DNA of 64,000 nucleotides from a virus. Shown here one piece after another: positions 2,201-53,339 of the stretch (position 1 is its first letter; each line of letters opens with the position of its first letter). Under the pieces are notes generated by a model. That model was not told the origin of the DNA, searched no databases, and saw only the letters and a list, made by a program, of their open reading frames with translations. The stretch spans positions 17,986-81,985 of IMG/VR virus record IMGVR_UViG_3300020027_000004. One strand, written 5' to 3'. The translations under genes were made by a program, and so were the position numbers.

Positions 2201-2647
2201 ATGACCGTATCCCATCGCCCTGACACCGCAACGCCGACCCCGCGGCGCCTCAAGTTCTCCCAGCCGGATCCCGAGCCTCGCTCCAGCTCTCGCGCGCGCC
2301 GTCCGCCTCGAGACCCCTCGAAGCCAAAGGGGCCAAGCCCCGAGGAGGCCCAGGCTGCCGCCAAGATCGCGCGCGCTGCGCGGGGCGAGCGGTTCAAGGT
2401 CCCGCCCTGGGAGCGGCCGCGGTTGCCGCACGGAGCTCGGTTCGAGCTCGACTATGACGCGGAGGCGATCCGCTGGTCGGGAACCCTCACGGCGGGCGGG
2501 ATCACGGTGGCCGGAGACTCCGGCTCGGTGATGAATCTCATGTCCGCGCTGGACGAGAAATACCGCTTCAAGGCGGCATCCGTCGCGTCAGCATCGAGGG
2601 GCGGCACGCCGGCGCCGAGCGACACATCCGATCCCGAGGTGCGGTGA
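2201..2647 (+). CDS. Hypothetical protein
   Basis: AGGAGG Shine-Dalgarno upstream of ATG2201; stop overlaps the next start. Confidence 0.6.
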   Translation: MTVSHRPDTATPTPRRLKFSQPDPEPRSSSRARRPPRDPSKPKGPSPEEAQAAAKIARAARGERFKVPPWERPRLPHGARFELDYDAEAIRWSGTLTAGGITVAGDSGSVMNLMSALDEKYRFKAASVASASRGGTPAPSDTSDPEVR

Positions 2648-9085: not shown

Positions 9086-9278
9086 ACGTATCGCCCCCCT
9101 TGTAGAAAACGGGGGGTCAATGCGGGTGCCCTGTACTGCCCGCTTCCGGCGATTTGCGGCCATGGGCATAGCTTGTCAAATACGGTCGGTTATTACAAGA
9201 CCGCCCGAGCGGGCGGGATCAGACCGGCAGCGGGGTGGGAGTTGCAATCCGGATTGGAATATGGGCATATGCCCACGC

Positions 9279-9899
9279 ATGAAGTCAACGTGGGTAACGA
9301 CAGCGGCTGCGGCGGAGATTTTGGGCCTTCAGGTCGTTCGCGTGCAGCAACTCGACGAACACCTACGGCCGGAACGAGTCGACGCTGGCGCGACCCGGCC
9401 GGATGGGATCCGCATCTACCGCCGGGACGTGATCGAGGCATACGCGAAGGCCCGCGCCGATGGTGCAGGACATCGTCAGCTTCGATGCGACGCGAGCGAT
9501 CCCAGAGCCGACAAGCGGGACGAGGAAGATCTCAACGCCATGCAGCTCCATCGGCGGATCGCCGAGTACTACCGGTCGGTGGGCAACGACGAAGCTGCGA
9601 TCGAGGCCGACGAGGTCGTGTTCAAGCTCGAGCGCGACGTCGCGGCTCGCGGAATCGCAGCTCAGCAAGAACTCGCCGCTCACGCGCAGCTGGTCGCGCA
9701 GCTCGAAGAGTTGGGTGTCGAGCTGAGTGCCGAGCAGCTGAAGCGAAGCTCGCGATACCTGCAAGGTCGGCTCGAGGATCGAGCACGCGTTGCGATCGCT
9801 CAGCCTGATCCAGGCGCTCCCGCCGCACCTGACGTTCCCCGGCACCGGGTGCGCCTCCGGCGTCGAGGGCGGCCGCGCGGTGTCGCTCGCGAGCGCTGA
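9279..9899 (+). CDS. MerR/excisionase-like HTH protein
   Basis: WVTTAAAAEILGL...V.QL....L.P.R...G.RIYRRDVI; the C-terminus may be out of frame. Confidence 0.6.
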   Translation: MKSTWVTTAAAAEILGLQVVRVQQLDEHLRPERVDAGATRPDGIRIYRRDVIEAYAKARADGAGHRQLRCDASDPRADKRDEEDLNAMQLHRRIAEYYRSVGNDEAAIEADEVVFKLERDVAARGIAAQQELAAHAQLVAQLEELGVELSAEQLKRSSRYLQGRLEDRARVAIAQPDPGAPAAPDVPRHRVRLRRRGRPRGVARER

Positions 9900-30246: not shown

Positions 30247-30322
30247 TGCGGGCAAGAGAAACGGTAACTCGCCAGGCCCATAACCTGGAGACACCCGGTT
30301 CGATTCCGGGGCCCGCTACCCA
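30247..30322 (+). tRNA. tRNA-Met(CAU), initiator-like, atypical
   Basis: Cloverleaf: acceptor TGCGGGC/GCCCGCT (1:72 mismatch), D arm GAG/CTC, anticodon arm CCAGG-CCCATAA-CCTGG, T arm CCCGG-TTCGATT-CCGGG. Confidence 0.85.
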
Positions 30323-50126: not shown

Positions 50127-50723
50127 ATGCCGTACCCGTCGCTTCCACCGCAGCGTCCCCGCTCGTCGATGCTTTGCGCGTTCATGTCGCATCCGATCGG
50201 CCCGGCCAAGGACGCGAACGAGTACATCGCGCGGCAGAACAACATTGCGAACGCGAACGAGTGGATGCGCTTCCTCGTCACCCACACCCCGTGGGCGATC
50301 GTCTGCCCGTCGCTGACGTTCCTGACCTCGCTTGAGAAGGACATCGACGGGCTAGCTGGCGCGCGGCAGATGCGTGATCAGTTCTCGATCCTCGGCCGCT
50401 GCGATTTCCTCGTCGAGGTCGGGTGGCTTTCGCCGCACATGGGCGACTTGCGGCGCATCGCAGATCGCAATCACCAGCCGCACATCGATTTGACGTTCAT
50501 GGGAAAGAGCCCACCATGGGCGCTCGAGCGCGCGGCGGACGTGATCATGGAACACGCGCGCATGACCTCGTCGATCATGCCCCGGTCACCGTGGATGCCA
50601 CCGCTCGCGAGCGAAGACATCCTAGCGCTGCGCTCAGCCGAGGAGTTGCTCGTCGCGTCGCCGAACCATCCTGACGCGCTCGCGGTGGTCCGCACCATCC
50701 TCAACGCGGCGGCTCGCAAGTGA
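50127..50723 (+). CDS. DUF4406/DUF1937-like (nucleoside deoxyribosyltransferase fold) protein
   Basis: FMSHP.G......N...A..W...L.......AI.CP; IL.RCD......W.S..M.. Confidence 0.6.
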   Translation: MPYPSLPPQRPRSSMLCAFMSHPIGPAKDANEYIARQNNIANANEWMRFLVTHTPWAIVCPSLTFLTSLEKDIDGLAGARQMRDQFSILGRCDFLVEVGWLSPHMGDLRRIADRNHQPHIDLTFMGKSPPWALERAADVIMEHARMTSSIMPRSPWMPPLASEDILALRSAEELLVASPNHPDALAVVRTILNAAARK

Positions 50724-51322
50724 GCGCTGCCGAGCCGCCACCGAAGAAGCCGGGCAATCCAGCGTTACGCGGAACGCATCGTGATCATCATGACTACAGC
50801 GCCTTGAAGACTGCGCCAGGCGGCGTTCCGGTGCTCCCCAAGCCGGAGTCATGGGACGACTTGAAGACTGGTGTCAGCGAGCCGAGCATGCCGACCTTCC
50901 CGCGCACTATCACCGCCGAACAGGTGGGACAGACGGTGGTCGCGCTCGACAACCGCAGCCAACGCAACCTCAACCTGACCGTCGAAGCCATCAAGGTATC
51001 CGACGAGACGCTCCTCGAGGTGCAGCGGGCCAAGGCGGACATCGACCGGCTCGATCGCGCGGTTTTCGAGCTCGGGACGCGGGTCAACTCGAAGCTCGAT
51101 GCGTTCGTGATCGCGCTGATCAAGGAGCGCGAGATCGAGGTCGACATCAACGCGAAGAAGACGATCCACGAGATGGACCTCGCCACGAAAAACAACGACG
51201 CGTTGATCGAGGAGGATCGCAAGCGGCGAGACCACCGGCGATGGCTCGTCGTGAAGTTAGTGGGGCTGCTACTCCTGCTCGTCGGCGTGTACGTCGCGGG
51301 CGGCAAGGGGCCATCACTCTGA
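50720..51322 (+). CDS. Coiled-coil protein with C-terminal TM (lysis-module membrane protein)
   Basis: Heptad-rich centre; WLVVKLVGLLLLLVGVYVAG TM near the C-terminus. Confidence 0.6.
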   Translation: MSAAEPPPKKPGNPALRGTHRDHHDYSALKTAPGGVPVLPKPESWDDLKTGVSEPSMPTFPRTITAEQVGQTVVALDNRSQRNLNLTVEAIKVSDETLLEVQRAKADIDRLDRAVFELGTRVNSKLDAFVIALIKEREIEVDINAKKTIHEMDLATKNNDALIEEDRKRRDHRRWLVVKLVGLLLLLVGVYVAGGKGPSL

Positions 51323-51454
51323 CCCTCGCGGGTCCCGGTGCGATCTCGCGGCCATCTCTTTCCGCGAGCTCAAGCTGAGCTGTGCGCCGCCATCCATTCG
51401 GCGAACAACTGACGGGCCGGGCCTCCGTCGTACAAGGGTGAAGCGGTCGAGTGT

Positions 51455-51530
51455 TGGGTGCAGGAAAAACCGGAATCGAACCGGCTGGTTTGCTTTACAA
51501 GAGCAACGCTCCACCTTGGAGCATTTGGGC
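51455..51530 (-). ncRNA. tRNA-Thr(UGU)-like element with disrupted acceptor stem
   Basis: Minus strand GCCCAAAT-GCTC CAAGGTG GAGC-G-TTGCT CTTGTAA AGCAA-ACCA-GCCGG TTCGATT CCGGT-TTTTCCTGC-ACCCA. Confidence 0.7.
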
Positions 51531-51651
51531 GTGTTGGCACCCGACGGATGACCGTCTCAGCGCCATAGAAAGCAGACCAACGGCCGGCTGTCAAGATCAA
51601 CCGGATCGACCAGGGATCGCCGTCCGGATTGGACCGTGCGACACTGCGGGG

Positions 51652-52452
51652 ATGGAAGCGGTCGCCAAGTTCTTCTCCTCGACTCGAGCCCTCCTCGCGC
51701 TCGTGGTCCTTGTCTCAGCATCGGTGTTCGTGGTGACCGGTCACCTCGAGATCGCGAAGTGGGTGGACTTTACGCAGACCGTTTTCGCGGTCTACGTCCC
51801 CTCGGAGACGGTTGCTGTGCTCGGCGCGTCTTACCTCGCCTCGAAGGAGCGGCGCGCTCCTGTCGAAGCGGAGACGGCCAAGAACAACGCTGCGGCCGCT
51901 GTGGCTACCGCTTCCCTGGCTCCGGCTGTGGTCGCACCGCCGGTGATCGTGCAAATGCCGCCACCGGCTCCGGCGCCAGGGACCACCACGACCACCACCA
52001 CGCCGGGCTTCGTGGTGCGCGAGCTCGTGGCGTCGATCGCAGTGATCGCGATGGTATTTGGGTTCGTGGCTGGCACGGCGATGGTGCTCGCCTCCGGCTG
52101 CGGTCCCAAGAGCAGGATGGTTCTCGGAGACATCATCGACTGCACCAAGCCGAACACGAAGGCGCTCGTAGACGAGTTCGCACCGGTGCTCGATCAGGTG
52201 CTCGTTCGCGCGACCACCGGAGACGGCTCGATCGATTGGGCCAGCGTCAAGGATGCAACCAAGAGCTTCGGCATGGAGACGGGCGGATGCGTGCTGAGCA
52301 CGGTGATCGCTCGAGCGCTCAAGCCGACGACCGATCAGGGTGGGAGCTCGCCGGTGCACGCGAACGCGGATGATCTGCGGCGCGGGTTCGAGGAGATTCG
52401 CGCGTCGCAGCTCGAGGGCAAGCGCTTCAAGACGGTCGCTGGCGAGCTCTAG
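51652..52452 (+). CDS. Holin-like membrane protein fused to a lipoprotein-like periplasmic domain
   Basis: N-terminal TMs, Pro/Thr linker, a further TM ending VLASG-C, two-Cys periplasmic domain; directly upstream of the endolysin. Confidence 0.6.
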   Translation: MEAVAKFFSSTRALLALVVLVSASVFVVTGHLEIAKWVDFTQTVFAVYVPSETVAVLGASYLASKERRAPVEAETAKNNAAAAVATASLAPAVVAPPVIVQMPPPAPAPGTTTTTTTPGFVVRELVASIAVIAMVFGFVAGTAMVLASGCGPKSRMVLGDIIDCTKPNTKALVDEFAPVLDQVLVRATTGDGSIDWASVKDATKSFGMETGGCVLSTVIARALKPTTDQGGSSPVHANADDLRRGFEEIRASQLEGKRFKTVAGEL

Positions 52453-52454
52453 CG

Positions 52455-53339
52455 ATGGCGATCCAGTGGAACGGCATTCTGTTTGGCGGGGTCTATCACC
52501 AGGTGCCCGGTCTCCGTGTCGCTTCGCCTGGTCCGGGACAGGAGAAGTGGATCTCCCTCTCGCCTCGAGACTACGAGCCGCGCTCCACGAGCTGGATCCG
52601 GATGATCACGCTGCATTCGACCCAGGGCAAACATCCAACGCCCACGATTCCGGGCGCTGGCAAGGGCGGGACCGCGCATGCCACCGCCGATTTCTGGCGT
52701 GACGATCCGCGGCACAGCGCGGCGCAGATCATCGTCGATGACAACCGCGATGTGTTCGTTCTCTGCGACCTGAAGAAGATCGAGGCGTATCACGCCAGCA
52801 CGGTCAACCCATTCAGCATCGGCATCGAGCAACGCCAGCGCCCGAGCGATGGCGGGATCTTCGAGGCGACATACCAAGCGACGATGGCTCTCGTGCCCGT
52901 GCTCTGCAAGCTCGCGCGGATGCCGCTCCAGCACGCGCGCCGCTCCTACAACGGCTCGATCATCAAGAGGCTTCTGTACGGCGGCCAGGTCGAAGAACGC
53001 AAGTGCGTTGGAATCTTCGGTCACCGTGACAACGCGTGGGACTTCGAGAAGCGTACGAGCACGCGCGGGCGCGGCGATCCCGGAGATGAGGTCTACCGGC
53101 GCCTCGAAGCGATCGGCAGTGAGGGCTTCGACTACGACGCCTACGAGGACATCACCACCTGGCAGCCGCGACAGCAGTACATGAACACGCTCGGCGAGAA
53201 GCTCGACAAGCGAGCTCGCGGCGGAAACCTTCCGCTCGATCAGTTCGATGGCGTGTGCGGCCCGGGGACCTACGGCGCGATGGAGCGCCACGGGTTCGCG
53301 AATGGCCACGCGATCGACCGCGCGATCGCGAACGGCTAG
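52455..53339 (+). CDS. Endolysin, N-acetylmuramoyl-L-alanine amidase with PG-binding tail
   Basis: ITLHST, SAAQIIVD, AYHA...N..SIGIE, IFGHRD...DPG; C-terminal DG.CGP.T..A. Confidence 0.9.
   Translation: MAIQWNGILFGGVYHQVPGLRVASPGPGQEKWISLSPRDYEPRSTSWIRMITLHSTQGKHPTPTIPGAGKGGTAHATADFWRDDPRHSAAQIIVDDNRDVFVLCDLKKIEAYHASTVNPFSIGIEQRQRPSDGGIFEATYQATMALVPVLCKLARMPLQHARRSYNGSIIKRLLYGGQVEERKCVGIFGHRDNAWDFEKRTSTRGRGDPGDEVYRRLEAIGSEGFDYDAYEDITTWQPRQQYMNTLGEKLDKRARGGNLPLDQFDGVCGPGTYGAMERHGFANGHAIDRAIANG

Follow-up and report, generated by a model that had tools for sequence, protein, structure and literature searches.

The window analysed here comprises 64,000 nucleotides of a viral contig of 88,002 bp (64% GC, approximately 91% complete). 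The element under study lies antisense to its neighbours in the 329-nt gap 51323–51651, 58 nt upstream of the start codon of a holin-like gene. The gene upstream of the gap (50720–51322, plus strand) encodes an orphan protein of 163–200 residues with one C-terminal hydrophobic helix, a putative membrane anchor, for which no counterpart was found in related lysis loci. Downstream, the gene at 51652–52452 (plus strand) encodes a holin-like membrane and lipoprotein-like protein, conserved among related phages in the position before the amidase. Its product gave no Pfam or PHROG match and is presumed to be a holin from its position and hydropathy. It is followed by a gene for an Amidase_2 endolysin (52455–53339, plus strand; PF01510, E-value 3.4e-9; PHROG endolysin). 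The original prediction had placed the element inside the lysis module. It does adjoin this cassette, but at its edge, in the gap just upstream of the holin-like/amidase pair. In three relatives (L251, L113 and L114), the lipoprotein-like C-terminal half of the 51652–52452 product is encoded by a gene of its own (about 135 residues) before the amidase, and in three others (L118, L122 and L126) it is fused to an N-terminal membrane part.

The terminase and capsid of the phage gave matches at about 33% identity. As regards a possible role of the element in codon supply, ACA is rare among the threonine codons of the phage (120 of 1920, as counted in a crude set of called ORFs). The sole other tRNA of the genome is a tRNA-Met(CAU) at 30247–30318 on the plus strand, which displays A8-A9, C33 and a U1xU72 mismatch. 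Met tRNAs with the same C32-C33 loop were also observed in L268 and L273.

The three inner arms of a tRNA were all located on the minus strand as originally described, with the conserved loop bases present and in the normal order of D, anticodon and T. The D arm (51508–51522) consists of a 4-bp stem and an additional C14:G21 pair, and exactly the same arm is present in Gly, Tyr, Lys and Thr tRNAs of phages that are intact. The anticodon arm (51490–51506) carries UGU at 51499–51497, and both bases of the threonine anticodon identity, G35 and U36, are thus present. Its 17 nucleotides are identical to those of intact tRNA-Thr(UGU) genes in five Actinomycetota genomes (L165, L167, L183, L201 and L206) and in one viral contig (L001). 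A 4-nt variable loop and a canonical T arm follow (51469–51489, the T arm proper being 51485–51469), of which 17 of 18 nt are common to the phage's own tRNA-Met. The T hairpin is followed by five U.

Covariance model analysis gave a match to Rfam RF00005 of 29.0 bits, for a gathering score of 29, and the alignment was restricted to model positions 5–66. The corresponding E-value was 0.0046 in a 5-kb search and 1.9e-5 in a genome search. ARAGORN did not call the element, even at the relaxed setting -ps85. The same letters were found in three further assemblies of the phage (L098–L100), which may share reads or site, and an assembly error was therefore rejected. The tRNA-like sequence is real and is derived from a threonine tRNA gene. 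Its core is that of a normal phage-type tRNA-Thr(UGU).

Position 9 had been reported as missing from this core. A shift of the register by one base, however, places C1 at 51531 and restores an A8-U9 linker, which is also found in intact tRNAs: the same 15-nt D arm is preceded by A-U in intact Gly and Tyr phage tRNAs (L016, L053 and L058). In the shifted register the 5' side of the element has normal length, the T stem is succeeded by three extra U, and the 1-nt linker known from pyrrolysine-type tRNAs is not needed. Among 161 viral tRNAs, A8-U9 occurs in 7 and a 4-nt variable loop in 52. The combination of A8-U9 with C14:G21 is thus a recurrent one in phage tRNAs that are intact, and the unusual positions of the core are normal for one class of these. 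Viral tRNAs without U8 carry a Watson-Crick 14:21 pair in 12 of 27 cases vs 20 of 113 for the others (Fisher p 0.005, the sequences being non-independent), a co-occurrence noted for intact tRNAs of the arrays in L016, L053, L058, L084 and L101. Such sequence patterns suggest that the U8-A14-A21 core contact may have been replaced recurrently in phage tRNAs.

The acceptor stem is broken, as the original prediction had claimed. The 5' strand reads C1 G2 C3 C4 C5 A6 A7 followed by the A8-U9 linker (51523–51531), with positions 4–6 unpaired. The 3' strand (51455–51468) consists of the three extra U and a segment ending with G70 C71 A72 C73 CCA, and its middle part has no pairing to the 5' strand. 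Counted from C1, the ends give C1xA72, G2-C71, C3-G70, the unpaired C73 and an encoded CCA at 51457–51455, at a distance of 11 nt from the T stem where 8 is normal. When every ungapped 7-bp register next to the T stem was tried, the best one paired at 4 of 7 positions with a 1-nt linker, or at 3 of 7 with a 2-nt linker. By comparison, all seven pairs are present in 151 of 162 viral tRNAs called in the fetched loci by ARAGORN, a program that favours paired stems. Breakage of the acceptor only was also rare among 184 cores collected without any acceptor requirement, the other 10 low scorers being by eye almost all mis-parsed intact tRNAs.

The residual acceptor of 3+2 bp proposed previously exists on paper only, with pair probabilities of at most 0.07, and a version with 2+2 pairs costs 4 kcal/mol over the arms alone in the energy model. 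In the same model the D hairpin extends into the acceptor and anticodon stems, and the cloverleaf is therefore not the predicted minimum. These calculations show that the acceptor cannot form and is predicted to be open. Regarding aminoacylation, N73 and CCA are not found at the correct distance from the T loop. Of the bacterial threonine determinants G1-C72, C2-G71, G4-C69 and G5-C68, the pairs 4-69 and 5-68 are absent, and the first two can be drawn only in a register without CCA. The claim that the RNA is non-chargeable is supported, in that it would not be expected to be charged as it stands.

The flanks of the element were analysed for signals of expression and for structure. A perfect TTGACA (-35-like) is present on the minus strand at 51589–51594 and is one of only four in the 88 kb, both strands included. 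No consensus -10 box was detected at 16–18 nt from it and the promoter scan found no full site; transcription would start near 51560–51558. Another perfect TTGACA is located at 9179 on the minus strand, outside called ORFs and near a serine-recombinase cassette.

A possible long closing stem on the minus strand joins 51558–51550 to 51448–51440, and the minimum free energy of the span 51558–51440 is -41.7 kcal/mol. This leader-trailer duplex was evaluated post hoc at P about 0.007 and is equalled in 4 of 211 real tRNAs. A 6-bp outer helix (GGGTGC/GCACCC) can indeed form as predicted, with its 5' strand at 51537–51542 pairing with 51461–51456 and burying the CCA, but taken alone it is not clearly above chance (P 0.02–0.16; 26 of the 211 real tRNAs have one). 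Its pair probability is 0.99 in the span 51558–51440 and 0.31 with a start at 51566, where a 5-bp leader hairpin (51543–51556) takes the same bases. A slightly longer 5' end extends this hairpin, which then captures the 5' strand of the outer helix; a start 4–8 nt further upstream already favours it. Alternatively, 51545–51538 can pair with 51453–51446 over 8 bp. A 7-bp direct repeat was also recognised on the minus strand, with one copy (51531–51537) ending just before the G at 51530 and the other (51451–51457) starting at the CCA; its P value is about 8e-4 by a genomic null, with 1 case in 211 real tRNAs, again post hoc. The fold of the element has a z-score of about -3, while the entire 245-nt region shows no more structure than shuffled sequences do (z -1.2). 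Taken together, the original observation holds for the arms and the broken acceptor, and is not confirmed for the missing position 9, the acceptor pairs and the outer helix taken alone.

Two further structural candidates were discarded. The outer helix as a displaced acceptor would need inserts of 11 and 6 nt, besides being near chance when taken alone. The other candidate was a second decayed tRNA around 51385–51325: the stretch 51385–51323 (minus strand), downstream of the element, contains a D-arm-like sequence and two GC-rich hairpins, but it has no T loop and no Rfam signal, and with a z-score of -1.1 it is no more stable than shuffled sequences.

Related loci were searched at the DNA and protein levels. 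DNA patterns run against IMG/VR, JGI metagenomes and GTDB brought up no further element whose acceptor is broken, and blastn against phages (INPHARED) and plasmids (PLSDB) revealed no homologue; all matches were to intact tRNAs or fragments of them, or were due to chance. A search of six genomes around a Myxococcota MAG was also empty, which carries no weight. Searches anchored on the amidase, capsid, tail and holin proteins retrieved relatives at 30–52% identity, with the exception of one holin fragment in SRR5688572, which at 86% identity is the closest relative. As no close relative is among the sequences retrieved, the missing homologues mean little. A tRNA-like element upstream of the holin/amidase pair was found in 0 of 12 fetched loci with a related amidase; nearly all of these have a holin/lipoprotein homologue adjacent to the amidase, and 4 have a full-length holin homologue. 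A complete relative of 53 kb contains no tRNA at all. The element is absent from related lysis loci and is therefore a lineage-specific insert rather than a conserved part of the cassette. In the course of these searches, a tRNA-like gene with an apparent insert in the anticodon loop, missed by ARAGORN, was noticed with the same sequence in L260 (about 9770–9880, plus strand) and L262 (about 2236–2345, minus strand).

The origin of the parts was examined by comparing the body and the 3' end of the element with intact tRNAs. The body is that of a threonine tRNA. The 3' strand closes with 11 nt found unchanged at the 3' terminus of intact phage tRNA-Met(CAU) in five contigs (L257, L266, L268, L273 and L282), and a shorter form of this end terminates many Leu tRNAs, while 0 of 32 matches were called Thr. 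The search pattern was built from the element itself, without a control for how frequently any such heptamer would match, and no parental locus was found. The five Met(CAU) tRNAs appear to end with A72, C73 and CCA, C73 replacing the usual A73. The phage's own tRNA-Met and the element share the leader end (CAC) and a 7-nt trailer.

These data are best explained by a tRNA-Thr(UGU) gene of the phage that stood alone with its own promoter, was inactivated recently and may be chimeric, a reading that we consider probable. Recent decay was one of the options put forward originally. In favour of this reading are the match of the core to intact tRNAs, the Met- and Leu-type 3' end, the unstable acceptor pairs, the failure to find a homologue or a Ro60 partner, the absence of the element from related lysis loci, and the replacement mode of the phage anti-nuclease tRNAs tested so far. 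The ancestor would have been a working replacement tRNA, encoded antisense in the late region behind a host-type promoter, and may have resembled the phage Thr(UGU) tRNAs that offset tRNA nucleases of the Toprim/OLD type. One or two local events could have destroyed its acceptor. The simplest would be a crossover in the near-universal T arm, joining the Thr body to a Met- or Leu-type 3' end, plus slippage in the U run; alternatively, 3–4 acceptor bases may have been rewritten locally. If transcribed, the resulting RNA would be poorly processed and uncharged, with no selected role. Since neither an intact orthologue nor a donor was found, we only infer decay and chimerism. The flank duplex and the 7-bp repeat are not explained by a T-arm crossover, and the rarity of breakage confined to the acceptor likewise speaks against this reading.

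The original prediction had reasoned that random decay should hit all arms, and had proposed a mimic among other options. If two tRNA genes cross over within the T arm, however, the inner arms stay perfect, as they would after a local rewrite, and damage restricted to the acceptor therefore needs no selection. Of the earlier interpretation, non-chargeability and recent decay are retained, while selection for mimicry can no longer be argued from arm-selective damage: the intact arms do not demonstrate it. A recent loss would account for the perfect -35 box and the intact core, but so would continued selection. Since a tRNA gene in antisense orientation requires a promoter of its own, the TTGACA is as compatible with a gene broken recently as with a mimic. 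Read as a pseudogene, the element illustrates neatly how a single event can break the acceptor alone in a phage tRNA, and matters little beyond this.

The strongest competitor, although rather unlikely, is a functional non-chargeable tRNA mimic. It would be an RNA of about 119 nt starting near 51558, whose closing stem buries the CCA and displays the three inner arms to ThrRS, to a nuclease or modifying enzyme acting on tRNA, or to a host Ro60. The flank features are the best case for it: the closing stem begins at the presumed start, the outer helix is almost fully formed in exactly that span, few real tRNAs have as good a flank duplex, and the fold z-score, the rare -35 box and the pairs of all arms, which are intact, point in the same direction. 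Anticodon-loop mimics are moreover bound by ThrRS, as known for the thrS operator (PMC9976931). Against the mimic stand the failure to find a homologue or covariation, the sensitivity of the outer helix to a start a few nucleotides upstream, the poor -10 box and the unremarkable score of the 245-nt region, besides the absence of a GNCGAA motif, of a Ro60 gene and of a YrlA match. An RNA clamped in this way and independent of a phage Ro60 would titrate ThrRS or a defence nuclease specific for Thr(UGU), a proposal that we regard as equally doubtful. The decoy for anticodon nucleases suggested at the outset goes against the tested cases, in which the tRNAs opposing P2-OLD and PARIS act by replacement (PMC12445682, PMC11464382). 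The element offers no CNG target to P2-OLD, and competition did not explain the rescue in that system (PMC12445682). In the literature searched, no description was found of an uncharged tRNA-Thr(UGU) mimic closed by a leader-trailer stem that hides the CCA. If true, the mimic would be an anti-defence tRNA of the decoy type, unlike the replacement-type phage tRNAs directed against OLD and PARIS.

An inserted tRNA copy or recombination scar appears improbable. Here, an 80-nt tRNA-derived segment would have entered an 8-bp hairpin by retro-insertion or an att-like event, generating a 7-bp target duplication, and would have been inactive ever since. The position of the direct repeat, interrupted from G 51530 to the CCA, agrees with this, and removal of the segment lets 51545–51538 and 51453–51446 close the 8-bp hairpin. 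The pattern is post hoc, though, and when the empty site was reconstructed, its minimum free energy structure did not contain this hairpin. The acceptor of a copied mature tRNA would be paired at first, the searches revealed no empty site, and the -35 box is left unexplained. A related amidase locus offers a parallel: in L116 (10880–10965, plus strand), and also in L117, a tRNA-Leu(CAG)-like 3' segment lies between the amidase gene and that of a tyrosine integrase, and is probably an att site. No tyrosine integrase (PF00589), however, was found in the 91%-complete genome of our phage, and the neighbours of the element are lysis genes, which does not fit a tRNA-derived attP, attL or attR site.

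Marginally less credible still is a cis-acting or antisense regulator of lysis timing, in which late read-through would meet transcription from a leftward promoter, a terminator or processing site being provided by the hairpins or by the T hairpin with its U run. The antisense orientation close to the holin-like start codon and the five U after the T hairpin are compatible with such a role, but the terminator scan at the element was negative, related lysis cassettes lack the element, and an anticodon loop faithful to tRNA would be unnecessary. An atypical working tRNA, charged despite its internal loop or trimmed and refilled by templated 3'-5' addition by a Thg1-like host enzyme, is the least likely reading of all: the encoded CCA, two terminal G-C pairs and the G35 and U36 remain, but the residual acceptor pairs are unstable, the threonine acceptor determinants are partly present in one register, which lacks CCA, and missing in the other, and by the ruler geometry of RNase P and the CCA enzyme the 3' strand is 2–3 nt too long.

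The element was also compared with known RNAs. YrlA-type Y RNAs of bacteria and phages (RF02553; PMC4201824) resemble it by their tRNA-like D and T arms, possibly within a closing stem. They differ in that the element has a true anticodon arm and the normal order of D, anticodon and T, where these RNAs have T arm, loop-closed acceptor and D arm. Neither a match to RF02553 nor the GNCGAA motif in the 5' strand was detected, and none of TROVE (PF05731), vWA_Ro60 (PF25045) and DUF2828 (PF11443) was found in the 91%-complete phage record. The identity as a Y RNA was therefore rejected.

Several intact tRNAs share parts with the element. The phage tRNAs of L016, L053 and L058 have the identical 15-nt D arm and A8-U9 linker, and the five actinobacterial tRNA-Thr(UGU) the identical 17-nt anticodon arm, but both groups possess 7-bp acceptors. 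The five phage Met(CAU) tRNAs, which have a 1:72 mismatch and are related to the phage's own gene at 30247–30318, share the 11-nt 3' end with C73 and CCA, and that of L257 also the 5' start C1-G2-C3. The element differs from them at positions 4–6, by the three extra U after the T stem and by its UGU anticodon.

Among the phage tRNAs with a demonstrated anti-defence role, the tRNA-Lys of T5 neutralises PARIS as a non-cleavable replacement (PMC11464382); it shares with the element that it is a phage tRNA of a type targeted by a nuclease, and differs as it is a working tRNA and not a decoy. P2-OLD destroys the isoacceptor tRNA-Thr(UGU) (PMC12445682). Phage-encoded tRNA-Thr(UGU), such as that of phage 21 and others, rescues the toxicity of P2-OLD by replacing the host tRNA, for which charging and decoding of ACA are needed rather than competitive inhibition (PMC12445682). 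The element resembles these rescuing tRNAs in its UGU anticodon, its phage location and the lack, in the anticodon stem, of the paired CNG motif at which P2-OLD cuts. It differs in having no acceptor helix, and since it lacks an acceptor, decoding by the element is unlikely. By analogy, its intact ancestor may nevertheless have belonged to the same type of P2-OLD rescue.
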